The notes under the pieces are model-generated. The model was given only the letters and a program-made list of their open reading frames with translations. It was not told the DNA's origin and made no database searches. 64,000 nt of DNA from a virus (Duplodnaviria; Heunggongvirae; Uroviricota; Caudoviricetes), in the IMG/VR virus record IMGVR_UViG_3300028591_000093, positions 80,765 to 144,764 of that record, one strand, 5' to 3'. Below are positions 33,352 to 59,799 of this stretch, piece after piece. The number at the start of each line of letters is the position of its first letter. Positions within the stretch are counted from its first letter, which is position 1. Both the position numbers and the translations under genes were made by a program.

Positions 33352-36300
33352 TTAATCTCCCCAGCTCCAGTCTTTTGCAGCACCTATTCTTTTATCCATC
33401 CAATCTTGTAAATCAATTTCTTTGTCATCATCAAATGCTGCAAATAAATCATTTTGTAGATTAACAAGAGTTGTATAGAACCCAGGCTCCCAGCTCAATC
33501 CTGTCAAACCATGAGGACCAACATCATCAAGTGCTCTGACAAGAGTTCTTTCAAATGGGTTCATGTCTGACATCTTATTAGTTCCTCCAGAGAAGATAAG
33601 TCTAAGAATATAATATAATAACAAACCAATAAGAATATCATGTAAACCTAATTTAAGGTTAGCAAGTCTTTGTTTATTATTCATTATCTCAGAAAAGTTC
33701 AAGTGATAGAGGTCTCTTATAGTTGACATGATAGAAGCAAAAATACCTTCTATATAGTCTCCTTGCCATACATATTGTGGCTCAAGAGTACCACCTTCAT
33801 TATCTTCTACTAAAGTAACTTGCAGTTCACCGTTAGCAAGTTCTGTAATCTTTCTGTATTGAGTCTTTCCATCAATTACTAATGGAACAAACTGACCTTG
33901 TGAGGTTGATTGACCAGCTACTCTTGGTTTACCTTTAAACCACAAACTAAACTTTGCAGTCCAGAAGGCCATAAACTGTTTCCAGATAAGACCAATAGCC
34001 ATGTGGTCAATCAGAGATTTTGTTTCATGGTCATAATAACCATAAACAGAATCAGAAAATTCCTTGAGAGATGCTGCTTGTCTATTAGTATAAGCTCTTG
34101 GCAGAGGTAATAACTTACCATCAGAAGAAGTCATTTGATAACCATTCTGTGTAAACTCATCAGCCATTGCTCTATAAAGAGCTTTCTCTTCAAGATATTT
34201 AGCATCAGTACTTGTAGAATTAAGACCAATTCTATTTAGTGTAGCAAATCTTTTATCTTTTGTAAAATCATACTTGAGAACTCCATTTTCATCAAATGAG
34301 TGAGCATCAAGTACTCCATCATGTATCATCTTTGCTATAAACAAAATCATTCTATTATAGTAGTCAGGAGCAATAGAGTTAATAAACATGTAGTTACTAA
34401 ATTGATTAGTAAGTCCTGTTTTATTAAGTGTTTGCTTTTGTACTATAGAAGAAATATCTTGGTTAGCAATACCATACATAATGTTGATTTGCTCACAAAG
34501 AGAAAAGTCTGCAATATCACCATTTCCTCCAGCAGCATTTAAGTACTTCTTACCAGATTGACCATATACAAATCCAGCAGCTTTTGCTAAATCAGCAGCA
34601 TCAAATTCCTGAGAAGTACCTTTCATTGCCCAAAGTCTAGCACAGTTACTAAATGTACCAAATGTGATTTCCTTTAAGAATGAAAGTGGTCTAAGTGACA
34701 ATACCAAGTAACTGTTAAGTTTCTTAGCAACACTCATTACCTTTGCTGCACCTTGAACTTCTTTTGGTAAGATAGTCTGGTCTTTAATTGAGATGTTTAT
34801 CTGCTTGTCAATAGCATCAAGTTCTTCAGAGAATGTTGCACCACCAGAAGCTCTGTAATAATGCATTACTGTTGCTACTGCTTCTACATGTAACAAGACT
34901 TCATCAAAGTATCTTTTTCTAATTGCTTGATATGCCATATCAGCAGCAAGAAAATTAAGATTGATTTCAAAGTCATGTTTACCTTCTTTCTCAATCCAAC
35001 TTTGTCTTGCTCTACCTGTAATGTCATAAGCATTATACATTTGAATAGAGTCTTCTCCAAGTTGTCTATCTATTTCAGCAGATACATCTGCATGTACACC
35101 TCTTAAATCAAAGTCATCTCTAAGATTCTACCAAGCTTTGTTAAAGAAATTCATCCAGCCAATATGACCAATGTTTCTCATTCTGTTAAAATCAGAACCT
35201 CTTCTTAAAGGTAATTCAAAATAAGTGTCCTTTGATTGAGCATCTCTAACTTGTTCAAGATTATCAATCTCAGTTTCATTACCTTTGTAAGCCATTGTTT
35301 GATATTTGAGGTCAAGACCTTTAATTCTCCATTTGTTAATTTCCCAAAGAATCTCTTTAAGGAACTACTTATCCCTTGGGTCCATATTGGTTTCAGAGTA
35401 AGGGTTCTTTAAAAGCAAGCTGTCTGCTAAATCTCCCTCTCCATCTTTTACCATTAAAGATTGCCAAATTGGATATGTATCATTCCAAGCAAGTCTATCC
35501 ATTTGAGATTTATTCCATCTATCTCTCAGATAATCAAGACAAATTCTGTTAACACTATTTGCTTGTTTAAAGAATTCTTCTCTTAACTTATCATAAGCAG
35601 CTCTATAGAAAAGAGCAATGTTCTCCATGTTTTGTGATGGAGAAGCAGAAGGAGTAGTTGAAATAAGTCCCTGTAATGGACCAGCAAATGAATTTTGATT
35701 AGCAACTATTGCACCACCAATCAATCTGAATATATCAGTTACATTGATTCCCCAAGTACTTACTTTACCATTAAATTGTACATCAGCATTTCTGTAATGT
35801 AACAATGCATTAGCAAGTAAGAAATAAACTTGAGATACAGGTGTGGTAAATGTTCTAGCAGTTGTTATATTCTCATGTTTTAACTCTTGAGGATAAGCTT
35901 TTCTAAGTTTCTTCATGAGGTCTTCAATCTTTGCTATCTTTTGATTCTTCTCTAAGTTAGAAGTTGGTATAGAAGTCATAATCTTATGAACTTCTTCATC
36001 TTCTTTTACATTAGCAAGAATAGTATCAAGTTCAGATAACAATAACTGCCAATCATCAGCTACAACAATATCTTGTGCAAAGTGATTAGTAATGTTCTCA
36101 CCTTTATTGTTAGCAGCTTTAATCAAGTAATCAAAGTTACTCTTTAGTTGTGCTAATACAGGAACATCAGATTGTCCTTCATAATTGTTGATTACTTTAA
36201 TAAGACCAATCTTTTTATTTTTAAAGATATTAGGATTCTTATCAGCAATAACATTTAATGTAACTAACAGTTTGATGTATTCCATGTTCTCAGTTGTAGA

Positions 36301-38058
36301 AGGCATTGCTTCAACACCAACTAATCTTCTTACTTGGTCATTACTATAGAATTTTCCAAGTATTGTTTGAGAACCATTGTTATCTTGTTCTACACCAAGT
36401 TTCTGGTCAGTAAGGCAAATAAAATCAATTACACCACTTCTTGTATCTTCATAAGCAATAATACCTAAATCAAGAAGAGTTGGAATATCAAGTAATTTGT
36501 ACTTCTTATTTACATACTTTCCAAAAGTTTGTTGTAATACATTGTATGTATTGGTATTAGGATTACTCTTTGTTCCTAAGAAGTCAAATGTAGATGGGTG
36601 AGCAGAAGTACTCTGATAATCAGTAATCTGTCTTACAATATCATGAACTTGTTTATTGAAGTGAGTTCTAGTATTGTTGATGATTTGTTCAATAATACCA
36701 TTATGTTTTGTAAAATCTTCTCTATTAGTTCTCTTTTCAACTTTACCTGTTAAAGGATTTACAAGAACATATTGTGTTCTACCATTCCACACTTGTACAG
36801 TAATTCTTCTATCAAGTTCTTCAAAAGTGTAATTTCTTTCCTTTCTTTCAAAAGGAATGATTAACTTTCTAAGAGCTTCATCGACTTCATTATTTAACTC
36901 TGATGTATTTATAGTTTGTACTGCTACAGGAGAATATATAAGTTGTCTAATGTTTTGAGAGTAGTCACCATAAGAGTAATCAAGCTTTGATGGAGTAGAA
37001 CCACTGGAAATACCTAAGTTTCTTCTATTTTCTACTCTCATACTTCTAATAGCTCCCATAGGCATACTAATTGGTAAAGTATATAAACCAATTCTATACC
37101 CATCAAAACCATTAGCAGCGAGTATTTCTCTATACATACCTAACTGATATTGAGTATGTATTTTCTTTGCAGAATACCAGTCATCATAACTTCTAGTAGA
37201 TACTTTGAAGTCAATAATGTCAATATCACCATTAGGTTTAACAATGATTAAGTCACAAATACCTTTAATACCAGAGAAATCTTCATTAACTTTTACATTG
37301 TTAGTAGAAATATGATGTTCACTCAAGATAGTTGCTCCAGAGTAATCAGGATTGTTAAGAATAGAATCAACGACAGCTATTACATTCTTTTTGATAATTC
37401 TAATTATCTCTTCAATGTTTGGTTTAGAACCTCTTTCTCTTGAAGTAAGTATAGTATCTAAACTTGCTACTGTCTGGCCATCAACCTCATGTTCTGTACT
37501 AGTTTCAATAGTTCTTTTAGCTTCAGCAAGAGCTGTTGCAAATGCTAATGAATCATAGCCTTTCTGATTAGCAGTTGTATTCTTAAATGCAATACTTACA
37601 AGATTATGAAATAAACTACCAAATTCACTAACAGCAGACTCTTCTTCAATTTGTAAAAGAAGATTATCTAAAGCTGCTTGCATGTCTCCATTGGCTTTCT
37701 GAGTATCTTCAGGTTGTAACAAGTTTTTAAGAGTATTCTCTATTCTGTTCTCTTTATTGTAAATAGGAACAAGAGGCTTCATAATTACTCTGCCTGCTGC
37801 ATCAACCTGTCCAAGGTCATGTTCTTGTTCAAGGTATTCAGATACACCAATAAACCTGTCTTTCTTTACAACAGTCTATGAGTTCTTTCTTTCTGACAAA
37901 GAACCTAATCTTCTAAGTCTTGTAGTAAGGTCTGATTGCACACTCAAGATTGTAGACTTAATGTCTTCCATTCCTTCCTGTTCTAGCTTACTAAGTATGT
38001 TTTGTACAAGTTCCTCTTGAGTAAGAGTTACTTTATTAAATGTATAGCATTTACTCAT
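33352..38058 (-). CDS. Giant virion/ejection polyvalent protein (1568 aa with TAG as sense) with a PD-(D/E)xK nuclease domain and C-terminal hydrophobic helix
   Basis: Joins track ORFs 37876-38064, 35365-37782 and 33352-35040 in one frame through TAGs at 37876, 35365 and 35128, with no TAA/TGA in the gaps. Motifs FGSLFH, GICDL, IIDFK and QLGMY. ATG 38058 overlaps the upstream TGA. Confidence 0.85.
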
Positions 38059-38921
38059 AGACATTCTCCTTCTGTAATTATACCTTCTTTAATTAAAGAT
38101 TCAATATAGTTCATAACTTTTGCAGATTGAACTACTTTATACTGATAATCAGAATAACCTGTTTTTGCAATCTTTTTAGGTTTCAAAAGACTACTATCAT
38201 TACCAATCTGAGATAAAGGACCTTGTAAGTATGAAATAAAATCAACAATTCCTTCAAGTCCAAATGTTTTCTCAAGATGTTTTACCATGATAGCATTCAA
38301 TTCATCATATTCTGGAATTACTTCATAACTAACCTTATTATCAATAATTGCTTCAATAAGTCTAGTAAAAGCTTCTTCTTTCCTATCTAAATCCATAAAG
38401 TGTAGATATTCAGTAGGAAGACTTCTTAACATTTCTTGGAACTGTGGAACTTTAGAAACAATTTCCATAGCTCTCATAAAGTCAGAATAACTGTCAGCTT
38501 TCATTACACCAAATACAAGATGTGTAAATTCATGTAATGGAGCTGTTGTTGTAGCAGCATTTGTGTTAATATAGATTTTACCTTCTGCTACACCAGCTTC
38601 TGTGCTTTCTGGAAATCCTAAAGATTTCATCTGATAGTCTTCTACTAACTGCACATCTACTCCTAGAGTTCTCATGTTATCTGCAATGATATTAAGTGCA
38701 GAATATAAATCAACCTCTTTTAAAGGTGTTTTTCTTTGATTTAAGACACTTTCATCTATCAACTGGACAAGTTTATTAGCTTTAGCTGGATATGCTCTCA
38801 GAGCCTCTAAAAATTGCCCTGCTACTTCTCTAGGATTTTCAGATATAGCAGTTGGGGAGGGAAGAGTAATCTCCTCCACTCCCTTTCCTGTATTTAATGT
38901 TACTTTAAATTCACATGCCAT
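38055..38921 (-). CDS. Zincin-like metallopeptidase (MPTase-type), 288 aa
   Basis: HEFTH (HExxH) plus downstream EEAFT; start MACEF placed 1 nt after the upstream TAA. Confidence 0.82.
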   Translation of the reverse strand: MACEFKVTLNTGKGVEEITLPSPTAISENPREVAGQFLEALRAYPAKANKLVQLIDESVLNQRKTPLKEVDLYSALNIIADNMRTLGVDVQLVEDYQMKSLGFPESTEAGVAEGKIYINTNAATTTAPLHEFTHLVFGVMKADSYSDFMRAMEIVSKVPQFQEMLRSLPTEYLHFMDLDRKEEAFTRLIEAIIDNKVSYEVIPEYDELNAIMVKHLEKTFGLEGIVDFISYLQGPLSQIGNDSSLLKPKKIAKTGYSDYQYKVVQSAKVMNYIESLIKEGIITEGECL

Positions 38922-38922
38922 A

Positions 38923-41900
38923 TTAACACTCATAATTAACTGACAAACTTCCATTCTCTAAAGCACTAGTTACTTTAGCAGCATTTTGTAGAGCTTTGTT
39001 ATCTACTTCAGCTTCTTCAAAAGTTCTAAGTCCAAGTAACCCTTTAAAACCATCCATAATTGAATGACCAGATTCAAATCTAATTAAGGATTTTGGTCTT
39101 ATTCTTCCTCTAAGTAAGAAATAAATGAACTTCTCTTTATTTTCAAGAGTAGGCTCTATTGTTCTTTCTCCTCTATCATACAAGAGATAATGATTGATTA
39201 ACCTCTGTGATAAAGATTCAGGAGTTGCATCAGTAATGTACTTATCAAATATCTTTGTAAGAGACCTTTGCCCTATAGAATCTTGATTAAGGATTTGATT
39301 GTAAATAAACATTAAATCTCCAAAAGTCATATCCAAACCTTTGTTCATTACAGTAGATGTCCTTTGGAGAATTGTTCCTAACTTAATATTCATCAATCTA
39401 TTAAATCCACCAACAAAGTTCTGATACTTCAAAGTATCATAATCTGAGTTGATTTGGTCTATATTGAAGTTAGCTACATATTTAGTTACACCAGTATTAG
39501 CATCTTCAAAGAGTCTTATTCCATCTAAAAATTCATTGTTTGTAACAGCTTGAATAGCATAGTTCAAATCAATTTCATCTTGTGTAGTAGGATTCTCTTT
39601 AATTGCTTTTCTACTAAGTTGTTTAAGAGCTGGAACTACAATATAGTTCATCAATTCAATAAAGTCTTCTATAGAAGCGTTGCTCTTGAAGTCTATCTTG
39701 TATAATTTCTTTAAAGTTTTATTTCTAAATGGTAAAGTAATCTGTAAGTTTTGGTCTTTAAGAAAATCAGCAACAACATAGTCATCAAAGAATTTAATTG
39801 CTCTTTGTGCAGTTCTACTGTTGTATGTAATCCTCTTAACTCCATTACTCTTAAAGTTAATTAAACTACCATCAAAGAAACCATTGATACCAGAATCTAA
39901 AATAAATCTAGCTTTTGCAGAAAGAGCTTTCATCTCTTCCATAGATTGAGAATATGCTTCAAGCATAGCATAGAAGTTACTAGACTCATTGATAATGTCA
40001 TATACATTGTAAGTAGATTTAACCGCATCATAAATGTCAGTTACTGCTTTTCTGTATTCAGGGTCAGCAAAATATCTTGTCATACTGATAGGTTTAGTAA
40101 TATCAATCTGATATTTTTTAATAATATCATTTGCCTTACTAATCTTATCTGAGTAATATTCTACTACTTTACCTCTTCTGTTATCATGTATCAATGTAAG
40201 AGCTTGTACTGCTGTATTAACATTTAACAATGGTAATTCATCATCTGTTACAACCTACAAGTTCTTTTTCAAATTGAACCATCCACTCTTGGATAGTCCT
40301 GGCATTTGACTTGCTCTAATTGCCAAGAGAGTTTCATGTAAATCTTTTATTCTGTTAGATAATACACTTTGGAAACCTGTTAAAAGACCATTAGCTTTAA
40401 ATAAATCAACTTTAACACCCTAGTTAACTCCAAGTATTCTTGCTAATTCAGTAATTTCATCAGCAAACTTATAAAGTCTCATTATTTGTACACAGTCATC
40501 ATAGTATCCATTGTTGTTACCCCAGGATAAGAATTCTTCAAATAATTGTTCATCAATTCTTTTTTCTTCACCATCAACAAATCTATTAGATTGAATCATC
40601 TCATTAAATTTGTTAAATGGTTTAGAAGTTGTAAATTGAACAATTGTCTCTGGGTCAACTCCAAGTAAAGTCAAATATACATGTATTGAAGCAAGCTTAA
40701 TACCTGCATTCATTTTTGCAAGTGCTAATTCTTTAGCATTATCTGTTGCAAGTGAAATCAAGGAACTTTGCTATAAGGAAGCAGTATTATTGTTATAATA
40801 CAACTGTCTTTCAGGATTACCTAATAAGTCTGCCCATGCTTTGGAAAGTTCTTTAATTCTTTCTTCAATGATTCTAACATCTGCTACAAAACTTGTTGGA
40901 AGAGTAATTCTTTTTTCTTTACCTTCCTCATCATTTACAAGTAATGTAAGTTTATTGTTAAACCACTTATAGCTGTCAAGAATATCTTGTGCACTTGGAT
41001 TATTTCTATAGAATTGGTTATAGTATTGTGTTAAAGCAAAGAATACTTTAATACCATTTGCCATTACACCTACTGTTTGTTTACCAACTGAGTTAATCTC
41101 TTGTAAAGCATGAATAGAAATTCCATCAAACAAATTCATTTGTTGTTGTTCTATAAATACCTTGTCAAGAGCATCTTTAAACAATTTCATTGCTCCATCA
41201 ATAGAGGAGTAAGAAAGAGAGAAGTTTTTAGCATTAGTAGAAACAGAGTTAATGTTTCTTGCTACTAAGTTCTTAGATTCTTCAGCTGTGATGATATGTC
41301 TGTTATGCTTGTTAAGTTTAATTATCAAGTTTCTAACAAGTCTATTATCAAGTAAGTCTTTTGTAATGTTAAAAGATTTATTAGTATTTACATAGTTTAG
41401 TATGTCTAACAGTAACTGTAAACCAATTACATTGTCATCTGTTGATATGTATTGTTGAATTAGTTGTACAAGTTGTGCATCAGGATTGTCAGTAGTTACT
41501 TGTACTTTATTAGTACCTTCATCACTGTCATCTCCCCAAACCAATTCAATGTTAGTTGGCAATGGTAATCTATCAGAAATCTCCATAGCTGCTTGACTAG
41601 TGTAATCTGCTAATGGAGACCAATGCTGATAAATACCTTGCTTGTTAAGTGAAACACCTAACATGTAACTTTTATCCATTTTGTTAACTTTACTTTTCAG
41701 TAAAGATTAGACTATCTCTTCACTCATATTTTGAGTGGTGTGCGCTTCCATTATCCTTTTATCTTCAGGTAATGTACTTAATGCTATAATTTCATCTAGC
41801 ACCTGTGTACCATAATAAATCTTTAAATCAGACATTTCTGGAAGTACTTTATACATCATACTTGGACAAACATAAGGTGATATTATTTTGAATAATTTTT

Positions 41901-44900
41901 TTCCTTCTGTTGCACCAAAATTGATTGTACATCCTGCTTTTTCATGAATAATTGTTGGAAATAAATTCCACTTTTCATTAAAGTATTGTATCCAAATGTT
42001 TGCTTGTTCTTCTGAACAATATGTACTAATTCTAAAATAGAATCCACAGTATTTTCCGTTGCGTTTTCTTCTAAGTATAGACCCATCATCCATACAAATT
42101 ATTGCAAGACCTAATGCATCTACTCTATTTAATAGTTTTAAAGAAAGAGTTTTTTTATTATCTTTATACATAACTCTTCTTAAAACTTTATTAAAATTGT
42201 AAACAGCAACATTGAAACTATATTGAATAGTATGTTTGCAATAACCATTTTGGCCTTCAAATCTAATAATTTGACCAACTTTTATACCATGCTTTTTTAG
42301 TACATTCCTTTTGTACTTTACATAGTCATATTGTTTCCAACTATGATTTACTCTAATTTGTCCATTTTTTTGAACACATCCGTCTCCAATACTTAATGCT
42401 ATTAGGAGATTTCTATTTTCTTTATTAACTCTATCTGTTAAAGATTTCATAATTACATTACTATTAAAGAATGTTTATAATATAATACACAATTAGTCGT
42501 TGAACCTTCCTCTATTTGAGGCTTGGCTGCTGATTACCATATCATTTAGACTTAGGCTTCCCAGCAATTCACACACTTTAAGGACACCAATAAAAGTTTA
42601 ATGTCCATATCTGACCCTTGCAACCATAATTGCCACCTAGTAACAAACACATCATTTACTTCACTCTCAGTAAATCCAGCAACTTTCATTGCCATGAATG
42701 ATTGTAAGTCCTGAGTAGGTATTCTGGTTGAGATGATATTTAAGGATTTTAAGAAAGAATTGTATAACACTTGAGACAAGTCTCTAGAGTATTGTTGCTC
42801 ACTATCATTATAGATATTAGCAAGTGCTTTCTTAACATCACCAATCATCTGCTGTGAACTTGCATAGGTAACATCAATTGCCTCAGTATCATATGTCTTT
42901 ATTTGATTATGATAAACACTATTCTTTACAAGAGTTCTTAATTCTTTTAAAGAATGGAAGTGTGTACCTAAAGGTTGTACTGAAACTATGTTATCTAAAC
43001 TTGATAAAATCTAGTTGATTTCCTTTACAGCAATTGTATCTGAATGTGTGTTAAGAACTATACATTCTTCACCATAATTGTCACCAATGTAAAGAGTGGC
43101 ATCCTCAGGCCACCTGTACATTCTATTACCTTGTTTGTCTATCCTGTATCCTTCTCTTACAAGAACATTAACGGGAGTAGCATTTTGAGGTTTAATTTTT
43201 GATATGCTAAACTTACCACTATCTGTTCTAACTATTACTTCTACATCATTAAACTCACTTCTATAATAATTGTTAACTCTTTCAAAGTAAGCTGGTGTAA
43301 TATCTGCTAAAGATGTATTTCCTAATTTCAGTTGAGTTCTGTAAATCTTAGGAATTACTGCTTCAGCAGCATGTTTCTGATAGTTAGAGATAATAGTAAA
43401 GTCACTAGCTACAGGTTCAAAAGAATGTCTAATATCTAAGTTTTTAAAGAACTGTCTAAAGTTATAATGACCTTTAGCTTTACCTTCAGTAATAAGAGGA
43501 ACTTCACCTAAAGTATATCCAAGTTCAAGAAGTTCTGCTTCTCTTGCTTGCCACGCTTTCATCCATTCTTTTACTTCTCTGAAAGCTTTTTCTCTATCTT
43601 GCTTAGTATTATTTCTATTCATTAACCTGTTAAACAAGTCCATATTACCTGTTACATAAAGTAAGAAGTCTTTTAACTTCTGTTCTTTAGAATCAGTTAA
43701 TACTTGCCAAGCAGTAAATCCTGGAGAAACTACTGCTTCATGTATTTCAGTTTCTTGAGTAGTTACACTTTGTTGATGCTCTAAAATCAGTTTTTGTAAG
43801 ATATGAGCATGATTTGGAGCCTCATTATAATCATAAGTACTTCTACCATAACTATTATCAGGAATCTTATCAGTATAGTAAACTAAAGGTTTACCATCTA
43901 ATTCTCCAGAGTTAATCTTATCTAATATCCATTGTCTTCTCTCTGGTTCAACATCCTCCCAGGCAGTACCTCTAAGCCACATCTCAAAGTCTTGTACAGC
44001 TTCTCTTACTGTAGGTACTTTAACTTGTGCTGTAGTAGTACCTGTTGCTAAATGAGAGAATGGATTACCAAAGTGCATTCCTTGAGCATCAGGATGTCTT
44101 AATGTATCAATACCATCAATTTCCTTAGCTCTTGCTTCTGTAGTTTTAGCACTACCAGTAATTACTAAAGGTAGTACTTCAGTTTGTGACGCAGATGTTT
44201 GTAAATGTTGTAATGTTTTAGCATATACATCTTCAATGGCTTTCTTTCCTTGTTCATTAAGTTCTCTAGTACCTATACCAGCAAAGTTTGGTGTAAGTGT
44301 TGGAACTTCTGTAACTGCCCAAGTACCACTAGTATTTCTAAACCACTGATTTCTAACTTGGTCAAACAAGTATACTGGTTTGCCAGCATCAATAGCCATT
44401 TGAACAGCCCATCCTGTACCACCATCAACAATTCCTTTACTAATATGTCCAATAGCAAATACAGCATCAGCATTTTTTACTTGCATCCAGTTTCTTGCAA
44501 GTAAATCCATGTATTTTTCTGGTTTTCTATTTAAAGTTTCATTAGCTTGTAAAACATGAGCTTTACCTTCTTGGAATTGTTCTTCTGTAATAGCTACATT
44601 ACCATTAGGTGTTTTGTTTCCATGATAATAATGATTAGAAGTAACACCAAATCTAGCACCAACTTCTCCCCAATAAGTATCACTACCAACAGCTCCACCC
44701 GAATGATTTACATATCCTTGTAATGCTTGACTTGTTACATTATCTACTTTAGGTAACTGTTCATCAAACAAACTTAACTATCTTGCATCATTGTATCTAT
44801 ATTGTAATCTCAACCCAACAGCTACTCTTCCTTTTTCTATACCATCATCTACATAATAATTCTCTACAAAATCATTTGTAAATTTTAAAAGGTCTTTAGA

Positions 44901-46670: not shown

Positions 46671-46671
46671 A

Positions 46672-49600
46672 TTAACACTCTTTTCTTGTTATTTCATTTC
46701 CTAAATCACTTAGGTCACTAAGTACAGATGAAGGATGTGAACTATCACTGTTCATAATATCTTCTAACAGGAATTGAAGTTCTACACTTTCAGATTCCCA
46801 AATAGAATGATGTACTCCATCTACTTCCCAAGTAATGTCTTGTGGTTTTAAATCTGAAGGAGTACCAAGTGATTGATATACTTCTACAACATCTGTTCTT
46901 TTTTTGAAGTCTCTTAATGTTAAAGGACTATCAATAAATATTCTGTGATAAGCTGGGTCTCCAGCAACTCTATATTCATAAAGTTCTAGAGGTTGTACTC
47001 TATCTAGACCAATTTTAGGACCTTTTAACAGATTACCATCATCAAGACTTCTTAAAGCTCTTTGCAAACCAAATGGGTTTATCTTCATAGAACTTTCATC
47101 ATCAGCATTCCAATCATACATATCTTGAGCAAGTCCTTCTAATGAATGATTGACAATTAAGTATGCCTGTACAAGTCTTTCTGTTAAATCTACATTAGGA
47201 GTTTCTCTATTATTCCAGTCTTCTAGCCAATCTAATTCATCTCCCAGATTTTCTGCCCACTGAGTTGCTCTATTGATTAAATCAGTGTATAAATAAGATT
47301 CATCACCTAATCTATAAAGTTGCATTACATTAGAAGAAGGATTAACAATACCTCCAACACCAGAATATTTTCTCTTTAATGCTAATCTATTCAAATCAGA
47401 AAGAATGTTAGCTGCTAAAAGTTTAAAGAAGTTGTTATTAGAGAATGGTAAAATAATATCAGTTCCTTGTGCAACTTCTTTCATCTTATTGATAATACTT
47501 TCAGCAATACTAATACTCTTTGAAGTTCTCAAGTCTTTCTCAATTTGTCTAGAAATTTGTTCTGCAAACTTTGTATTCTTTAACTCTTTAAAGTCTTCAA
47601 AAACATCAGTTATTCTTTCAAGATTACTTCTAATAATAGCAGCAATCTGGTCATATGTAATCTGAGCTTGTGAAATTGCATTACCATTAGATGCAAGTGC
47701 TGACATTGTTTGTGTTGTCTCAGACATTTCAGACATATCAGATTCATGATTAGCATCTAATTGAATACCAAAGTTTGAAGTATCAACTTCAGACCAATCA
47801 AGGTCTACATCATTTGTAAACCACTTATCAGTATTGTTTACATTTGTAGCACCTCTCTTTACACCAGACTTGTTTGCAAGTATAGCAATAAAGTAATTTC
47901 TTAAAGGTTGATGAACATTATCTTGAGTAATAAGAGTATCATCTTCACTGAGGTCATTAGAACCTGTGTTGATTACATATTCTGTTAAAATATCAAGACT
48001 TTGTTCAGAGTTCTGTAAAATACCGTTAACAAGTTCTTTAGAGTTATAACCTCCAAGCACTTTCCACAGTCTATACAGATTATCTATTCTAACTTCTTTA
48101 GTTCTTACATCGGGAGTACCATTTTCATCTACAAGTCTGTTACCATTTCTATCAACTCTACTAGTTGTTATTTCATAGAGGAATTCTCCTACTTTCTTAA
48201 TATCAAGTAATCTATAGAAATGTGGACCTTCTTGATAAAAGACTGCTTTACCTTTTGACATTGCTTCAACAGTATTAACAATTCTTTTATTTTCAGTGCT
48301 AAAGATGTTTCTGGTAATATCAATATCATCTCCCCAAGTTAAACCTAAGAATTTCTTCATTAGTAAATCAAATGAAATTTTTGTTGGGCTACCTGATGTA
48401 ACTGCTACTGTATTTCTAATCTTTTCATTAGTAAGTGGAAACTCAGCCCACTTGTAAAGAGTAGCATAATTATCTCCTGTGTGCATACCAAGTGTTTTCT
48501 TAGTACCTTGTATACCTCTGCCAGGAATTGAGTTATTTTCTAATCTTGATTGAATAGGACAAATGAAGCAGCTACCATCAAATACATCTTGACCAGACAT
48601 TGCCCCATTAGGATTATATACTGGTTCAGATAAGTCATCTATTACAGCTAACTTTATTGATGGAGATACTCCATTGATTAACTTTTGTTGGAAGTTCTCA
48701 ACAGTACCAGGGAATATAACCATTCTCTTTGTAGTTGCTCTAAACTTCTCATCAGCTTCTGCTACATCATCCTTATATTTACTCTTTACAACATCTATGA
48801 AAGGCTCTTTAGAAGTTAAGTCTAAGTAAGCTTGCTGAATGATGTTAGTTATTAAAAGATATTTAGCAATAAGACCAGAATCAATACTACTTGGGAAAGT
48901 AGAGAATTTATTCTTGTTATCTTTTATATATTTTTTAGCATCTTCTGCAAAAGCTTCAAGTTTCTTGAGTCTTTCTCCCATTTGTGCTCTGAATATATCA
49001 AAGCTTGAGATAGAAGCTAATTCAGCAGCAATTAACTTATTTGCTTCAACACCTCTCTTTTTAGCATAACTATAATGCAACTCTTGTGTAAGTGTTACAC
49101 CATTTTTAGGCATTGCTTGTAAAGAAGCAATAGATGGGAACTTTAATTTTAACAGTTTATCAAGAGCATTCCAAGCATGTTGTAATTCTCTTGCATGTTC
49201 TTCTGTTAAATGTTGTTCTTGTAGCATCTCAACTACATTGTCAGGATTAAGCATTGTTACTTCTCCTGGGAAATAATCATTCCAGTCTTGAAGTACATTA
49301 TCTACAAGATTAACATACATGTTCTTTCTGTAGAAATATGCTAATTCTAGGAGTTGAGGTGGGGTTAAATCCTGTAAAGGAATAAACACTTGGCTACCTG
49401 TTTGAAGTTCCCAAGGATTGACAAGTACATCAGATTGTAAGTTAATAACCTTATCAATTACTGAAGACTTATCTGAAAACTCAGTTGGCTGTATTGCCAT
49501 AACTCCTGTATTAGGATTATCATTATTACCATAGAATAAAGATAAGAAATCACCAATAAAGGAAGACATAAAGCTTTCCTGAGTTGACATATGAGAAGCT

Positions 49601-51666
49601 GTCTTACTATCTTCTCTTGACCCTACATCAAGTTTAACAGCAGTAGAGCCTCTATAATTGTAATTAACAGAGTTCTTATGCTGACTTTTTGTATCAAATG
49701 GATTTGCTAACCTTTGTGAGAAGAGATTGGGGTTAGCAGCTAGGAAATTAGTTAATCTTGCTTTCCAAGCACTGTGTAATTTCCTATATTTTTGTAAATA
49801 GAACAAATCATTAAATGCAGCAGAACTAATTCTGAAAACAGGAATAGAAGAACCTTCATAATTGTTAAAAGTAGTATAAGGTACATTATCTTCTTGTGCA
49901 GATAAAATTGAAGCCATCTTTTGGAAAGCGTCAATCTTTGCAATACCTGTCTTTCTATCTTCAACTACATCAAAGACTGCTTTATTTATTTGTTGTATCT
50001 GGCTGACTAAACCTTCTGCTTTAACATCTAAATTATTATATGCTTGAGAAATAGTGTTAAACAGAAAGGCCATGTCTTTTATAAATTTCTCTGGTTGACC
50101 ATACAATGCCACAATAACAGGGGTTAGTTCTTGTTGGAATACAGCTCTAAACATTTCTTTAAAGTCTTCATTTTCAAGAGCTGCTAACAGTAAAGTCTTA
50201 GTTGTTCCTTGTGGATAAGCTAAATCATAATACTTTACTTTAATAGAGCTGTTTTCTCCTGTTTTAAGGATAATACCATCTTTACTAAAGATTGAAGTAT
50301 CACCACTTTCAGGAGCTGCTATTTTAGCTTGTGACATTGCACCTGCAAGTTGCTCAGATACCTTACCAGAAGATTTAGAACTTTGAGAATAGTTAACCTG
50401 TGTTGCCATTGCATTCTCATCATACTGTAAATATGTAGGAGCAGTGGTATTCTTTAAAGCATGTGTAAGTAAAGCCTCAATATCAATAATCTGTGATTTA
50501 TTAACATTTAATGGCTTTCTTAATTCTGCTAAATATAAAGAAGCAACAGGATAATTCTCTGCATCTCCTTGATATAAGAATTTAATGAGTGGCATAAAGT
50601 CTCTCATATTCTCCTTAATTATATTAGGAGTATCTTGAGCAGTAAGCAGAGTTCTAATTGCTTTGTTAGGATTTTGGTGCATCCCTTCAAAGTCTGGATG
50701 AGTAAGTGCATACTCATACTCTGCTTGTCTAAGTAATCCTGACAATCTAAACAAATCTGCTGTACTCATAAACTTACCTGGAGTATCAGCATATTCATTA
50801 GTCCCAGTTTTGTGTACTTTAGGTATTACACTAATTATAAACTTAGCAAGTTTAGCTAAGTAATTTTCAGCATTAGTTTCCTCTAAATCATCACCTTGCC
50901 AATACAAAGTAGATTCAGAAGCTTCTATTCTAGAATAATCAGCATTTGTTACACTACCTTCAGCAGCACTGTCTATTTCTACAATTCCTTCAAACTCTTT
51001 ACCAACTAAAGCATCAAAGTTATTCAGAATAAATAAAGCAGAAAAAGTATCAAAGTCTTTAATGTTTGTCAGGATATTTGCTGATGGCTTAAATACTGAT
51101 ATAAAGTTTTGAACTTGAGGGCTGTTCATAAACTCCTGGTAAGCTTCAAAGTTAACAGTACCAGTTGTATTGAACATATTAGTTGTTGGCAGTCCTAAGT
51201 TTTGTGCAATGGTATTCATCAAGAAGTTTTTCAAGTTAGCTATACCATTGTTAAATTGAATACCATTTTTGATATAAACAGCCTTGGCACCTTTACTTCT
51301 ATCCAGCAATGTATATTTAAACATCAGCTGTTGTAGTTTTTTCAGAGTATAGTTATAAGCATCAGAAGCATTTTGGAATAATTCCAGCATATTTCTAATA
51401 TCATACTGCTGAATAACCAATTGAGGAGTGAGGTTTGGATTGATATTTCTATAATTAAAATTATAAGTTTCTAATCCCAACTCAGCAATCACTTCTCTAA
51501 AAACTTTATCTCTATTTCTATCTGCAATAGAATTATAAAGATTTTGTAATTCTTTTTCTACCTATTGAAAGGATTTTGTGTGTTCATTTAATCCAATAAT
51601 AGTAGACCTAACCTCTTCAGTTAGGTCTACTATTGTCGAATCAACTTTTCTACATTGATGTTTCAT
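46672..51666 (-). CDS. Giant virion protein, probable second (beta-like) RNA polymerase subunit, 1664 aa with TAG as sense
   Basis: ATG 51666 (MKHQC) lies 3 nt after the upstream TAA; one TAG at 51562 joins it to track ORF 46672-51492. Segments DVFDGSCFICP, KKTLG and GIQLDANHE; adjacent to the catalytic subunit. The RNAP role is inferred. Confidence 0.7.
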
Positions 51667-51669
51667 ATA

Positions 51670-54600
51670 TTAACTACAATATATTTCCAAGTTATTGTCT
51701 GCATCAAAAATAGCTCTAAGATTTGGGTCTTGCTCACCTTCAAAGGTAAGAGCTAAGAAACCTTCATCTGTAATAGTAATGAATCTATTGATGTCAGCTA
51801 CATCTGGAGCTATATCTTGCAAATGTTCAACTAGTTTATCTAAGTTCTCAATCTTATTCATCAAGTAACCTTGATTAACCATATCTGTAAGACTAGTATC
51901 CAAGTTAAGTATTTCTTGAGCCATACTTTCAATAGCTTCTCTATGACCAGATACTTCAGGTTGTTCAACAACCACTGGAGCAATTACTACCTGTTCTGTA
52001 GTACTTAAACCTTGAATTGGTTTACCAGCAGGGTCAAGTATTACAGCAGGAAGAGGATTACCTTCAGTTTCTTCCAAACCTTCTAACTCATCACCTTCTG
52101 TATCAGATACGATTACTTGTGGTTCTGGAGCAGGAGGTGTAGGTAATTCTTTAGCAGGCTCTTCAATTGTTGGTTGTTCTGAGTATTCATTTGTTACTAT
52201 CTCAGATGGGAATTCCATTACTTGCTGTCTTGCTTCAAGTGCAGAAAGGTCTAAACTAAAGTTAGGTGTTTCTACATAATAACCTCTTAATCCAAGATAG
52301 TTAAAGAACTCTGGATTAGATAAGTTAATAGGATAAGTACCTTTAACCTCATCTAGAGCTGCACCTTCAGGATAAATGTTAACTCTTACAGTATCATTGT
52401 CCAAGTCAATTGGAGCAGGGAATACAGCAGAAGTGTTCTTAAATTCTCTAATATCAACATATTTAATATTTGCAGAATCATAGAAAGTAAGTGTATCACC
52501 TTGTGTCTTAACAAAACTTCTTATGAACCACAAACCAATATTAGATGTTCCTTTTAAGAATTGCTCAACTGCATCTCTATTCATGTTAGCTCCCTTAGAA
52601 GCAACAAAACCTTCAAGTCTAGCAAGAGTAGTAGCAACTTTATCTGGATTACTTTGAGCATAACTTCTTAGATGTGCAAGCAGCTAATCAAAGTAGTTGT
52701 AAGCTTCATTATTGTCAAAAGCATTGACAGCATCTAACAGTCTTAAAACTGTTTGTGTTTGGTCATACTCTGACATGAAGACACCTTTTCTCATCTTAAT
52801 ACTCTTATCAAGTATTTTTCTGATAGCATCTTCTAATCTAAACTTACCTCTATCTAAGATAATACAAGTTTGGTTAGCTGGATTATTATCATTGGTAAAA
52901 CCAATAACTGCATAATAATAACCTTTTACAATGAGATTACCATCATCATCAAGAAGATTACTATTTTCTCCAGCATGATACTGTTTGTAAAATTCTGCAA
53001 ACTTGTACTTGTTATCTGCATTCTTTGCATCTGTTATAAGACCAATCTCTTTAATTACTATACCAGAATCAATCATTCTTTGTAAAGAAGAGAACTCTTG
53101 AGCATCAGAAGCTTTCACTACTCTAAGAGGAGTACCTTGTTCAAATTGTTCAGTTGTCCAGATGATAGGTGTATCACTATCATTAACAGCTGCTTCCATT
53201 TCTTCAAGGATTGATGTGTCAATAGCATTTTCAGGATTTCTCTCATTGAAAGCTTCAATTGTAGAAATCTTTGGATAAGTACCAATAGTAATAAATCTGT
53301 TCAATTTACCATCTACTGAATATACTCTTCTACCAAAGCTAAGCAATGGGTCTCCATCTGCTACCATTTTACTTTCATCAAATCCAAACTTGTATGCTGG
53401 AGCATCAATTTGAATGTTACTCTTATAACCCCAAGAATATTGTTGGTCTTCAACCTTAATGTTCTCCAGTATCCAGTTAACTGGGTCTGCAACAGTATTC
53501 AATTGTGGGAACACTACTCTGAAGAAATCGAGGATTTTACCACTATCTAATCTGATGGCATTTTTATAGTCTTCAGAGTTAGAATTTGGGTACAAAGTTA
53601 ATACTCTTTTGAAGGCAATAAAACCCTGAACTATATTTTCTGGAATAACAGCTTTATTGTTAAATAGGCCATCTAAATCAACAGGGAAATACTGTCTTTC
53701 AGCTTGCTCTGACTCAGTAGCAGGAGTAAACTCTCTACTTACTGAATTATAGTTTAAACCTAAATGATTATAGAAACTGTATCCATAATAGAATTGGTTT
53801 CCTTCAGCAGGATAAGAAGTTTCTTCTGCAATGTTAGTTACAGAACTTCTATCCTCACCTTTATCTTCTGTAAATACTTCATCAATCTCTTCTTCTGATG
53901 TATTAGGAGTAGTTGTAGAAGTACTTGGAGAAGCAATAGAAGGTACATAATCACCAAGCAACTCATTAAGTTCATTCATCTTATCTTCTTTCAAAGTAGT
54001 AACACTAGAAGCAGCAGGGTCTCTATAATAGCTTGTATTAGCAGTTCTGTTAGAAACAATATGTAAGCTATCTCTAGTATCCTTACTCATCTTAATAATA
54101 CCACCTGTCAAAGACCTAGTAATGAAAGTATAGAACTTAACAAGATTATCTCCAGTAGAAGATGAGAGATTCAAATCATCAATAATGAAGTATTCTTCCT
54201 CAGCTCCTTGTACTGCATTTACTCCTAATTTCTCAGGACTGTAAAGTACATAATCAGCTGGAGATATACCAGCTTGGTTAACAAGTGCTTGAAGTTCTGC
54301 TGGCATGTTACCAGAAGAATCAAGTGTTGTTAATATACCTAATTTCTTATCTCTATTTCTTGCTGCTTGAGCAAGTTTTCTAATATCAGCAGGAGTAATA
54401 CTCTCAACAATCTTATCTCCATGTAAGTCTGTCTCATCTTCCCAATACTTAACAGTAAGAGGATTATTAGCAAGAGCTTTTTCAAGAGCAGCTGTAGCAG
54501 CATTTATACCTACAAGATTACCAGTAGTTTCATAAATATCAGCAAGGATACTTCTTAAAGTATCAATATTATCCTTCTTATTTATGTTAGTTGGTCTAAT

Positions 54601-57600
54601 TGACTGAAGAAGTCTTGGGCTAGACCATCTAAATACTTGGTCAATATTATGAGGTGCAATACCAATATGAGCACCATCTTGTAAAGTATCACCAAAAGTA
54701 AAAATCTTTATACCATACTTTTCAGCAATATAACTCAGCACTTGTAATTCAGCAGAAGTAAAGTGAGTTACCTCATCAATAAGAATTGTCTTAGGGATAC
54801 TTAATATCTCATTTGTACTTCTATAGAAATCATCATTATTTGCATCAAAGTTCCAAATATGAGAACCATCTCTAGTTTCAATTTGAGTAAGTAAAGAATC
54901 TGCACTTGTTGGGTCTTGCAAAGATTGCATTAACTTACTGTATGCTTCATCAGTTAAGAACTTTCTTAACAATTCTTCTTTATTAGCAACATTAAGCAGT
55001 CTTACTTTGTGCTCACTAATGTTAGTTGTAACACTAGAGTGAAGTCTTTGTGCTTGATTAGTGTTAGGAGCTACAACAGAAGTTCTTTCTGTGTTAATCA
55101 TTGCTAAAATGTTTCTAGCTACAACAGAAGTCTTTCCTGCACCACTAACACCATTTAAGAAGAATATGTTCTTAGTCTTTAAGATAGAATAGTCACTATC
55201 ATACAGCCAATCAATAACTGCATTGTGTAATCCTATCTTATCTGCATACATGGAATAAGCAACTTTAGTAGCATGTTCTTGAGAGAAGTAAGGAACTTTA
55301 TCAAAATCACTACCAATGATTTCTCTATATTTAAATAAGAAATCTCTTGGGTCAATTGCAAGGATAGTAGTCAAGTATACAAGATAGTCATACTCTGAAA
55401 GAGCTTGCATATCTTTATGTAATCCTGCACTAAATAATCCTTTTTCAAGAATCTCTTCTCTACTAATTTCTAAGTTATCAAATAACTTTGCAATGTTACT
55501 TGCTACAAAGTCAGGTGTGAGAGATATTTCTCTAAACTTGTTAGACATATACTGCTCAATGAAAGCAAGTTGTCTGTCAGGTGTTGTATATTGGTCTATT
55601 TGGTCCTGTGGAGGATAAATAGAAATATCACCAATTTTCAACTTACTTGCATCAGCTTGCAGTTTAGCTAACACAATTTTAGTATATTGTTTTTTGATAT
55701 TCTTGTCTTCCTCTAACTTATTAACTGTATTAGTTTCATTAAGTGTTCTAAGGAATTCAAGTTTATCTACAATAGCATCAATATCTTGCATAAGTATAGC
55801 AGCATTTTCAGAAGAAATAGTTTCATACTTTTCTGCATTTGGTTTACCATACTTTTCAAGATATGCTCTAATTTGAGCATTGTAACCAAACAAATGACCT
55901 GTATAAGAGATTGGTGTACCATCCATACCTGCTACAAGAGCTTTCATAGTATTCAGAACTCTTTGAGCATTGTCAAGTTGTTCTGCAATATCAGGAGCTC
56001 TAAGATAGTCTTCAATAGAAGAAATACCAGATAAGTATGTAGACTCATTCTCTAACAGATTAAAGATACTTACTGCATTTCCATCATTAAGTTGGAAATC
56101 TAAGTCTCTTAATCTATCATATAAAGGATTTGTCTTAATCTCTTTAGTAATTGTAAGGTTATACTTTTCTGTTAATGGAGAAGTAATGATGGCACTAACT
56201 TTGTTTACAAAATCTTCTTTAAAATTAGGAATATTATGTATTACAGCTTTTGCTTGTTCATCTTCACCATTTTCTATATCAGAAATTACTTTATCAGCAA
56301 ATTCTTGAATGATTGTAGCAAGAGGTTGTTTACTGTCAAGACCTCTTACTAAGATACTATCAAAGTTATCTAAGTCTTGACTAGTTAAAGACCAATATGC
56401 CATTTCTCCATCAGGAGTAGGAGCATAATAACTTAATCTACTTTGAAGAATAGAATATTTATTCTTTATACTATTATAAACAAGTGTTTTAAGAATCTTG
56501 AAGAGTTCATTATCAATTACTTGATTTGTTTCAAAGTACTGATTAAATATAGTATCTTCAAGATTATAATCTCTTGCTTTTATAGAATTCAAGATGTTAC
56601 CAAATAAAGTTTCTTTTGCAGTATTAACATTTGTCTCATCTACAGTCATTTCTGTACCTATTACTTGTGACAGGTATTGAGAGAGGCCTTCGGTGAGAGT
56701 GGGGTTATTAACTGTATACTGGTCAACTAAAGCATCTGTATAAGGTTTAAGAGAATTAGCAATAAAAGCTGCTACCACATCTCCTGTTACATTGTTAGCA
56801 GGCACAGATGATAGCCATTCAGCAACTCTCTGATTTAAGTTTTGTCTTAATACAGATTCCTCTACACCAGACACTCTTGATACTTCAGCAATTAGTGAGT
56901 TATCTCCTAAAGCAGTATTTACAAATTCCTCACTTACTTTTACAGGGTCTGCTCTAAAGATGTCACCAAGAGTAACTCCAGGTAAACCACTCTGTGAAAG
57001 CACACTGGAAAGTTTAGTTAGGATTGTCCTATATGCTCCATCTCTTAATAAATTTGCATAATTGCCTCTACTTCCAGAAAGTATTGTGGTTAATACAGAT
57101 TTTCTTAAATCAGCATAATTCTCAACATAATCTTTAATTGCAGTTGAGAATGTTTGCTCAAGATTGTCATAAGCATTCTGTAAAATCCACATGAACTTAG
57201 TATCTACATTTTCATTGTCTCTCCATTGCTCATATTCTGTTTTAACAGTATTTTGAGTAACAGTAGCACCTTCAGTAGGAAGACTCTTATAGTCTACACC
57301 ATATTTAGCTTTAGTGTAGCTATATAAGTCCATAGTTACTAAGTTGTTTCTAATTTCTGGAATAAGATAACCAAGTGTGTACTTTAAGTATTTCTCATAG
57401 TTTTCACCGCCAAGAAATGCTCTAATAGAAGCAAGCTCTTCATTATACTTTTGCTGTACATTACCAGCTTCTGCTTCTGGAGTAGCACTTAATTGACTTC
57501 TCAAGTTAACCAGATTTGCAACATGCTTGTTGTAATCAGAAATAACTAACTTATGTATGTTACTATTTTCAATAAGAGGAATAATCTAAGCATCCCTAAC

Positions 57601-59799
57601 TACTTTTTTGAGAAGTTCTTGGTCATTGTTCTTAATATCCTCTGTATTGATAACAGAATCAATGTATCTAAGATATTCTATCAAACCTTGTACTACATAG
57701 TCGCCTCTTGTCTTAGAACCATTCTCAGCAACAGGTGCAGCTTGTCCATCTACAACAGTAGGTAATGATACAATATCACTGTCATACTTAGCCATGCTCT
57801 TTGCTACTTCAATTAACTCGTTAAGTCTACCATTAGCAATCTCATGGATAAGTGAATATTGAGTAGGAGGAGTTACTTGTTTGTTTGTTAACCAAGGCTC
57901 CACCCTAGTATTTTGAAACTCAAAGAGAGCACCACCTAAGAAGCCACCAAGAGCTGACATTAAATATCTTTGTGCTCCTTGCTCAGAGAAGACATTAGAC
58001 CAACCACCAAAGGAACCTTTGTTGTCGCCTAATCCCATCCAGCTCAAGAAGTCAAACATACCTTTAGTAACATCCATTGTAGCTTCTTCAGTTACTTCTT
58101 CAATAGATTCTGCAACAGCATTTCTCCAGAACGGTTCTGTACCATCAAATGTTCTTTCAAAAGTCTTATGAATACTATTTCTAGTCTTCTTAGCAAGTTC
58201 TGCAAACTTACTTAATTTTCCAGTAGCATCTGGTCTAGTAGCCATTTGGTCAATACCTGCTGCAATTTCATTGTAGTAAGGTCCGAGTGCTTTCTTTAAA
58301 GAGGCTTTGTTAATACTTCTCCAGTAGCCTTCATCTTGACCTAAGAACCAAGAAGACACTCTATCATCAATAGCAGTCATGGCTAAGTACTGTCCAAGTG
58401 TTGCTAACAATGCAGCAGCACCAGCAGTTCTTCTATCATAACCACCTTGTAAAGCATCTTGGTAAACATCGTTAGAAGAGATGAGAGCCATATAACCAAG
58501 GGATAAACCTCTGGCTAACTTACTTTGACTTTCCATCAAAGCTCTGATTTCAGGAGAAGCATTAACCATTCCTTGCCATACTTTAGCAGGTTCAATAGCA
58601 ATACCTTGAGCTTCCATTCCTCTAAGAGTATTCATATACTGATTAGAGAATTTCTGAAGTGCTTGTTTTTCTGCTTTAGTATAAGACATGCTTGAGAGTT
58701 TGCTTAAAGAAGCAGCAGCTTTCATTTGGTATAACTGACCAAATACATCAGATACCATATCTGCTACTTTCTCATAAGATAAGAAAGACTCATTAGCAGC
58801 ATCAGAATAAGAAGGATTAAACTTTGCAGCATAACCTTCCCATTTTGTCATTGTCTTACCAAAAGCAGAATCATTACTATTGGTTAACAAGCCGTCTAAC
58901 ATTTTACCAAAAGTAGGTAATACTTGTGCTAAAGATAAAGCAGCTGTAACACCACCATAGTAAATGTTAAAGTATGGAATCATGTAAGGAGCTATCTCAA
59001 AGACAGCTTTCATTGTTGTTCCTGCAACACTCTTATCAAGACCATCAGAATCAAAGAAGTCAACTTTGTTCAACCAAGAATCTTCCTTAGTCAGAATATC
59101 AGAGTAAGCTACTGGTTGTTTACCATAGATTTCTCTATTACCAATAGTCTCACAATAATACTGACCTTTATCATTCAGTTTTGGTTGTCCTTTCTTATGT
59201 TGAACTTCTCTACCAATCTTATCATCAAAATGAGTGCCATCTTCATCCCAAGTAGCATACACAAGAGTAGGTCTACCTAAGTATTTCAAACCTAAGAAAC
59301 CTTGTTCTTCTGCTGTGTAGTCTAACTCTTTTCCTGTCTCAAAATCAACTACTTTTGATTGTTGAGCAAGTTCTCTCCAGCTCTTAGTTTGGTCTCCCTC
59401 ACCAAAGAGATGTTTAACACCTCTACTAGTTCTGAGAGGATTTTCTATCTGCTGAATAGAATAAGTAGGTTTAACTTTTTGAGCATCTATTGGAGCATAA
59501 ATATCTCTAGGATTATACTTAGCATATTTACCAAGTTCCTTTGCAGACTTTACTGCTGCCATTTGGTCATACATTTCAGATGCATACCTATAAGTATCCT
59601 CAAAAAGTTTTTCATTAAACCCACCATCTCCCATCTTAAAGGCTTCCTGAACAAATTGTGAGTTCTTATATACATCTGGTGCTAAGAGCCCTGTATTCTC
59701 GGTATTTAAGCCATTAAATATCAGAGTGCTGACATTTGCAGTAGGATTGATTATTGCAGATACAAATATGTCATTAGGTTTTCTAATATCCTGTGTCAT
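51670..59799 (-). CDS. Giant virion/ejection protein (2709 aa with TAG as sense) with hydrophobic helices and an SF1 (RecD/UvrD-like) helicase domain
   Basis: TAGs at 57586 and 52684 join three track ORFs in frame. Motifs GVSGAGKT, LIDE, FGD-x-x-Q, VQGAE and YTFITR; ATG 59799 overlaps the upstream TGA. Confidence 0.85.

Follow-up and report, generated by a model that had tools for sequence, protein, structure and literature searches.

No viruses of the human gut are more abundant than the crAss-like phages. Giant proteins that are packed in the virion and leave it through a short tail, an RNA polymerase (RNAP) among them, are familiar as the ejection proteins of phages N4, T7 and P22, and to our knowledge covalent chaining is not known for any of these. 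Among crAss-like phages, packing of an RNAP module in the virion, its injection and transcription of early genes by the RNAP are known only for the cultured phages phi14:2 and crAss001 (Drobysheva et al., preprint; PMC10172136). The g066 protein of phi14:2 is the virion RNAP (Drobysheva et al., preprint), and gp47, gp49 and gp50 of crAss001 are carried as cargo in the capsid, with partial unfolding expected when they leave it (PMC10172136). Here we describe positions 33352-59799, minus strand, of a 64,000-nucleotide (nt) stretch of DNA (the window, which refers to the whole stretch that was analysed) from the IMG/VR record IMGVR_UViG_3300028591_000093. The record, a single contig of 169,151 bp, represents the genome of an uncultured crAss-like phage. 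The segment encodes five consecutive proteins, and wherever the C-terminal end of one protein faces the N-terminal end of the next, each of the two ends carries one cysteine (Cys), a residue that both outer ends of the series lack.

The gene block of the window resembles g067-g066-g065 of phi14:2 and gp47-gp50-gp49 of crAss001 in that it comprises, in identical order, a giant first protein, an RNAP with the motif GSD(F/Y/M)DIDK and a last protein, with a zincin domain present in the set. The cargo blocks of the two cultured phages obey the same terminal-Cys rule as the window. The window differs from them in consisting of five chains rather than three, with the RNAP cut in two at the second junction, and in having a free zincin of 288 amino acids (aa), a PD-(D/E)XK domain on the last protein, an intron, and late genes in which TAG is read as Gln. 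No direct pairwise similarity was found between the window proteins and the proteins of crAss001. In other lineages the same modules occur in fused forms and in the same N-to-C order (cr1_1, 4551 aa; cr118_1, 4946 aa; crAss002 gp33 and cr3_1 gp24, 4245 aa). The joints in these fused Crassvirales proteins are peptide bonds without Cys, whereas the joints of the window would be thiol links between gene products.

Cysteine at the facing ends of the five proteins

When the standard code is applied, the minus strand between 33 and 60 kb of the window contains many broken open reading frames (ORFs). Reading TAG as a sense codon produced long frames in this region, and reading TGA as a sense codon did not. 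In a relative with 79% identity, six of the nine TAG sites are aligned with CAA (Gln), all of them in conserved context, and TAG was therefore translated as Gln. With this code, positions 33352-59799 encode five consecutive proteins of 2709, 1664, 2274, 288 and approximately 1568 aa. The proteins and the junctions between them are listed below, with dots marking the continuation of a protein.

Protein 1: 51670..59799, minus strand, 2709 aa; first in the series; N-terminal end MTQDIRKP without Cys; 3 Cys in total
Terminal Cys of protein 1: codon at 51676-51678, minus strand; penultimate residue (end ..IYCS)
Protein 2: 46672..51666, minus strand, 1664 aa; start MKHQC, end ..RKEC; Cys5 and the last residue, Cys1664, are terminal; 4 Cys in total
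Protein 3, exon 1: 42600..46670, minus strand, 1357 codons; start MNIC, end ..WLQGSDMDI inside the catalytic DxDxD motif
Protein 3, exon 2: 38923..41676, minus strand, 917 aa; end ..NYEC, Cys being the last residue
Protein 4: 38055..38921, minus strand, 288 aa; start MAC, end ..GECL; zincin-like HExxH; Cys3 and Cys287 are its sole two Cys
Protein 5: 33352..38058, minus strand, approximately 1568 aa; last in the series; start MSKC; C-terminal end WSWGD without Cys; 6 Cys in total
Junction 1: 51652..51678, minus strand; ..IYCS faces MKHQC
Junction 2: 46659..46677, minus strand; ..RKEC faces MNIC; cuts an RNAP that is one chain in relatives
Junction 3: 38913..38928, minus strand; ..NYEC faces MAC; kept as ..NYQC facing MAC in the 79% relative
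Junction 4: 38047..38063, minus strand; ..GECL faces MSKC; ATGA stop/start overlap; kept in the 79% relative

The initial annotation of this DNA, made from the sequence alone, had pointed out a pairing of Cys at the junctions and their absence from the outer ends, and both observations were confirmed. At all four junctions the upstream protein has a Cys 0-1 residues from its end and the downstream protein has one at position 3-5, and neither outer end (MTQDIRKP.. and ..WSWGD) contains Cys. The Cys counts given at that stage were also exact, with two in the 288-aa protein, Cys3 and the penultimate residue, and four in the 1664-aa protein. In the case of protein 5, an alternative ATG is present at 38064 (MSMSKC), and the terminal Cys is at position 4 or 6 depending on the start.

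Proteins 1 to 5 contain 3, 4, 5 (after splicing), 2 and 6 Cys, respectively, corresponding to 0.235% of 8,503 residues, and eight of these 20 Cys are terminal. The Cys frequency in 37 early-strand ORFs of the same window is 1.71%. The probability of finding all eight terminal Cys by chance, calculated for eight matches within 5 residues of the N-terminal end or 2 residues of the C-terminal end, is approximately 1e-17 when the proteins' own Cys frequency is used and approximately 6e-11 with that of the early genes. Terminal Cys were found in none of the other ORFs of at least 400 aa across the 169-kb genome.

The three proteins encoded just upstream of the block (622, 500 and 1006 aa; 59796-63163 of the window, minus strand; C1:143929-146949) contain no Cys at all.

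Conservation of the junctions across Crassvirales

A comparison of orthologous junctions, including those of lineages in which the genes are fused or split differently, had been proposed in the initial annotation, and the terminal Cys proved to be strongly conserved. A search of phage records with the 1664-aa gene by blastn and tblastn matched only two distant records. MT835470 and MT835492, whose proteins are 22-31% identical to those of the window, follow the same rule with other gene boundaries. MT835470 has the layout 2967 / 2275^983 / 804 / 1523 aa; of its 8 Cys, in a total of 8,552 aa, six are terminal. MT835492 has its first protein divided in two (1540 / 1555 aa), and a pair is present at the resulting junction as well, ..EACKVIA facing MQSNC. 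The rule holds further in crAss001, phi14:2, DAC15, IAS, crAss002, cr1_1, cr118_1, cr3_1, cr11_1 and the cyanophage Lbo-JY46 (Leptolyngbya phage). The one Cys of crAss001 gp47 (2341 aa) is the third residue from its end; gp50 carries Cys5 as well as one at a distance of 8 residues from its C-terminal end, and Cys5 is the sole Cys of gp49 (1349 aa). In phi14:2, the one Cys of g067 is its last residue, the two of g066 are Cys3 and the penultimate residue, and the one Cys of g065 is Cys3.

A scan of IMG/VR with a single protein matched nothing. An alignment-based profile scan of the same database gave 52 loci, and these together with the reference genomes provided 40 distinct junction pairs. In all 40, a Cys lies 0-2 residues from the C-terminal end (8 in one instance) and faces an N-side Cys at position 3-8. 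All of the 20 distinct C-terminal ends of last-protein homologs lack Cys. The zincin could be followed more broadly, as an exhaustive HMMER search with the 288-aa protein led to 147 cluster representatives (at most 50% identical), 129 of which are at least 270 aa in length. A Cys is present 0-3 residues from the end in 128 of these 129 (approximately 2 are expected by chance) and within the first 8 residues in 105. The terminal two are the sole Cys in 31 representatives, including one protein of 3147 aa. The lone exception, P0090 (2006 aa), carries its zincin domain at residues 147-348 and is fused to the last module. It retains the N-side Cys (MIGC) and lacks the C-side Cys, and because the fusion makes its C-terminal end the outer end of the chain, the protein fits the rule. 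The C-terminal Cys is also invariant in an alignment of nine RNAP family sequences with a mean column identity of 29%, and Cys287 is invariant alongside H130, E131 and H134 in the alignment of the zincin family.

A Cys pair comes with each pair of new termini and goes with fusion. The 4551-aa fusion protein of cr1_1 has two Cys in all and none at the joined site, and no Cys is found near the joint in the fusions of RNAP and last protein in crAss002, cr3_1 and cr11_1. The fused RNAP of MT835470 has no Cys where the window has junction 2, and conversely the unsplit protein 1 of the window has none where MT835492 is split. The pattern is thus conserved and strictly tied to the starts and ends of chains. 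At the level of sequence, these comparisons support selection for one Cys at every facing terminus, with neighbors in module order as the partners.

Two annotations in other genomes touch on the rule. In crAss002 (L006, 9270-9374), the start annotated for gp33 probably lies 32 codons too far upstream; an in-frame MSC that fits the rule follows, and gp32, upstream of gp33, ends with ..FVCS. In IAS virus (L060, 11019-20001), gp055 (MSLYC..) and gp056 (..LCxK at the end) overlap at ambiguous bases. An assembly gap has probably broken a single RNAP gene into these two, and read as one they obey the rule. The rule is also of practical use in annotation, both for true start codons (crAss002 gp33) and for broken gene calls (IAS gp055/056), and would mark giant proteins that belong to the injected set.

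A proposed linkage through the facing cysteines

We consider that the five proteins probably constitute a virion-packed and injected RNAP cargo module, in which the single Cys at each facing terminus would most likely form a disulfide from the C-terminal end of protein n to the N-terminal end of protein n+1. The proteins of 2709, 1664, 2274, 288 and 1568 aa would in this manner be joined to one quasi-linear thread of approximately 8,500 residues, with disulfide joints as a stand-in for the peptide bonds of the fused polyproteins in other crAss lineages. As the Cys are near the ends, the joint would be unbranched, and a partly unfolded thread may pass through the portal and tail channel. The scarcity of other Cys would avoid wrong pairings, and reduction in the host cytoplasm would release the parts. 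We estimate a probability of about 0.55 that head-to-tail disulfides between proteins link the cargo module. Regarding the linked cargo chain suggested in the initial annotation, the pairing of facing termini and the order of partners are supported by conservation; the chemistry of the link (disulfide or metal) is what we infer, together with the bond itself, the stoichiometry, the threading and the release. The chain is the most economical reading, although it is unproven.

Linkages with a comparable logic are found elsewhere. In AB toxins such as diphtheria toxin and the clostridial neurotoxins, carrier and translocated enzyme are held together by a disulfide that becomes reduced in the target cytosol, and in von Willebrand factor and mucins, terminal disulfides build linear polymers. 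There is no homology in either case. AB toxins are two chains nicked from one polypeptide, whereas the window encodes separate gene products. Von Willebrand factor and mucins are homopolymers of oxidising compartments, whereas the chain of the window would be an ordered heteropolymer made in the bacterial cytoplasm or after leaving it.

Comparison with ejected proteins of N4 is informative in terms of the baseline. The N4 proteins gp50 (virion RNAP), gp51 and gp52 contain no Cys in 4,294 aa. Cys is strongly avoided in both N4 and the window, the difference being that N4 is without any terminal Cys. Avoidance of Cys seems to be shared by ejected phage proteins in general and, with the Cys-free N4 proteins taken as the baseline, the terminal pairs can be regarded as a deliberate addition. 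In addition, some end members of the series have one Cys in 1,400-2,960 aa, the upper extreme being 2,967 residues, so that an internal bond is impossible in these proteins. Inter-subunit disulfides are present in crAss001 virions, and those of the tail and portal vertex link structural proteins in folded interfaces, unlike the terminal joints considered here (Bayfield et al. 2023, PMC10172136). That study neither resolved the cargo proteins nor discussed their Cys, and a non-reduced sample of crAss001 virions has already been run in mass spectrometry (PMC10172136). The termini of gp66 are not visible in the crystal of phi14:2 gp66 (Drobysheva et al., preprint).

Several points weigh against disulfides between the cargo proteins. 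The cytoplasm of the host is a reducing environment, the gut habitat is anoxic, and a search of the 169-kb record found no gene for Erv1/Alr, thioredoxin or glutaredoxin, so that no thiol oxidase of the phage can be named. The positions of the Cys vary, from 3 to 8 on the N-side, with a distance of 8 residues to the end for the C-side Cys of crAss001 gp50. Recombinant gp66 is functional by itself, and the papers on crAss001 and phi14:2 report no very large reducible species, though none were sought there.

Other explanations of the pattern were considered. The counts given above rule out chance. A signal at the nucleotide level, for translational coupling or re-initiation, might happen to encode Cys at the junctions. 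The 13-mer GAGTGTTAATATG, described initially as common to two junctions, is indeed present in the window at 46680-46668 and 38931-38919, but is not conserved in the 79%-identical relative, in which it is altered and the Cys is retained. The junction DNA among relatives also differs in Cys codon (TGT or TGC), spacing and overlap. Moreover, the pairing is kept in crAss001, DAC15 and IAS, where the genes of the first protein and its partner lie on different strands and at least 10 kb apart. Linkage in gene order, as first proposed, thus gives way to linkage in module order, in which the neighbors are indeed paired. The opposite-strand (convergent) genes refute a nucleotide-level signal, whose chance of being correct we regard as negligible, and together with the variable junction DNA they indicate that the signal is at the protein level. 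Closure of each middle protein on itself, by a disulfide between its own two ends, would account for the middle proteins having Cys at both ends. The first and last proteins, however, have one terminal Cys, which is often their sole Cys (crAss001 gp47 and gp49; phi14:2 g067 and g065; Lbo-JY46), which contradicts self-closure for these end members, and we regard it as very improbable overall. It is also conceivable that the terminal Cys act independently or with a third partner, in homotypic pairs, in attachment to the capsid or portal, or as a transient thiol during packaging, with neighboring proteins left unlinked. Sequence alone cannot tell which Cys pairs with which, and structural proteins of crAss001 do use disulfides (PMC10172136). 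This explanation, which we consider unlikely, leaves unaccounted for the pairing of C-terminal and N-terminal ends at module boundaries, the presence of one Cys per side at each new split with loss of both on fusion, and the Cys-free outer ends.

The remaining alternatives concern the nature of the contact. The facing Cys could share a metal ion (e.g. Zn, Fe or Cu), perhaps with participation of terminal amino or carboxyl groups, instead of forming a disulfide, and the logic of a chain would be the same. The Cys are very close to free termini, the C-side Cys frequently comes after an acidic residue (E at -2 in 80 of 128 and E or D at -1 in 64 of 128), and no oxidant would be required in an anoxic habitat. 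On the other hand, there is one Cys per terminus and no conserved His or second Cys nearby, for which reason a disulfide is favored over a classic metal site, and the varying distance to the ends (0-3 and once 8 on the C-side, 3-8 on the N-side) is a poor fit to a chelate involving the terminal groups. We thus give a shared metal only a small share of the probability. We likewise have little confidence in a role of the Cys in non-covalent docking of neighboring termini, or in a brief bond during assembly, which would leave separate proteins in the mature virion. Beta-formers are frequent among the eight residues that follow the N-side Cys (0.44 versus a background of 0.29), Y, I or V is found at +2 from this Cys in 87%, and an N-G turn often comes next; these strand-like residues and the turn hint at a structured handshake. 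The C-terminal end of the zincin family displays a conserved hydrophobic-x-E-x-C pattern, and judging from these sequence features a defined local structure at the joints is possible. Docking is at odds with the lack of a clear strand signal on the C-side, and a single invariant Cys amid variable residues would more typically serve in chemistry than in packing. A model in which each junction corresponds to the cut turn of a beta-hairpin was only half supported, the N-side being strand-like and the C-side not, and was rejected.

Returning to the disulfide-linked chain, a wider proposal, to which we assign somewhat less than even odds, is that the whole injected enzyme set is one ordered covalent heteropolymer, a post-translational 'polyprotein'. 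Its joints would let genes split, fuse and take up modules, and host reductants would cut the thread and switch on the RNAP. The matter bears on how crAss-like phages, with their short tail, manage to pass over 0.7 MDa of protein. An end-to-end tether, if true, would explain equal dosing of the cargo, its ordered exit, and the freedom with which the genes have split and fused in evolution. Terminal Cys or linked cargo are not mentioned in the crAss001 atlas, the phi14:2 RNAP preprint, the Epsilon crAss paper, or the results of full-text searches for crAss with cysteine or disulfide, a coverage that most subscription papers lie outside of. As far as this literature extends, the terminal-Cys rule is a new feature of a known module.

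Identities of the proteins and the intron in the RNAP gene

The functional labels of the initial annotation held for the RNAP (DxDxD), the peptidase (an HExxH zincin) and the nuclease (a PD-(D/E)XK domain), and the P-loop/helicase matches are below the Pfam cut-off. Protein 2 is the N-terminal half of the RNAP and aligns in blastp with residues 1220-1912 of the fused 2275-aa protein of MT835470; protein 3 aligns with the same protein from residue 1986 onward. The RNAP exons of the window join the window-clade RNAP family by blastp (3e-13 and 9e-24), and this family matches that of phi14:2 gp66, a two-barrel RNAP, and crAss001 gp50 in hhalign (94.5%, E 7.8e-8, 320 columns) across the catalytic motif. 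The spliced motif GSDMDIDK, with D1282, D1284 and D1286 invariant in the RNAP family, lines up with GSDFDIDK of the gp66 family. No solved relative came up when PDB sequences were searched with the three pieces of the RNAP and the RNAP family profile, and the homology to gp66 was seen in the profile-profile comparison alone. Approximately 1,090 residues at the start of protein 3 (residues 1-1090, within 42600-46670) are without a counterpart in the fused RNAPs of relatives, and a large extra module has therefore been gained at the very point where the gene is split (junction 2). Residues 303-368 of protein 3 resemble the zincin region in the 804-aa protein of MT835470.

Protein 4 contains the motif HEFTH. 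H130, E131, H134, E182 and E183 are invariant in its family, and it is a zincin by motif; no Pfam family was matched. The PD-(D/E)XK domain of protein 5 is found at residues 139-322 (PF12705, 31.1 bits against a cut-off of 22). The last-protein family shows a weak hhalign match to the gp65/gp49 family (82%, E 1e-5, 215 columns), and blastp gave no match between protein 5 and gp65/gp49. Protein 1 is homologous to the first protein of MT835470 and MT835492. Its region at residues 1542-1709 is likely a P-loop, with scores for Pfam AAA_30 and AAA_19 below the cut-offs (25.2 versus 27 and 24 versus 25.1 bits, respectively), and on this sequence evidence protein 1 is a candidate SF1-type helicase only.

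The RNAP gene is interrupted within protein 3 by the following elements.

Group I intron: 41677..42599, minus strand, 923 nt; Rfam RF00028 at 51.7 and 34.8 bits
LAGLIDADG homing endonuclease ORF: 41707-42450, minus strand; inside the intron; PF03161 at 66.7 bits
Unspliced frames of protein 3: 42552-46670 and 38923-41679, minus strand; two ORFs of one interrupted gene

Joining of the T at 42600 to the G at 41676 by splicing restores ..GSDMDI-DKSYMLG.. (the hyphen marks the joint), and the resulting DMDIDKSYMLG corresponds to GSDYDIDKAYIMG (DYDIDKAYIMG) of intron-less relatives. The intron is thus positioned exactly within the codons of the catalytic DxDxD of the RNAP. The spliced protein has 2274 aa and 5 Cys, and two Cys of the unspliced exon-1 ORF fall in the intron read-through. 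The same site is intron-free in some IMG/VR relatives (e.g. L008) and occupied in others (e.g. L013, L016 and L017), which indicates that the intron is mobile in this phage group.

In-frame TAG codons are confined to the late genes of the window phage. The sole tRNA(CUA), located outside the window (C1:30636-30723), has 88 nt and a long variable arm, features not usually seen in a Gln-type suppressor.

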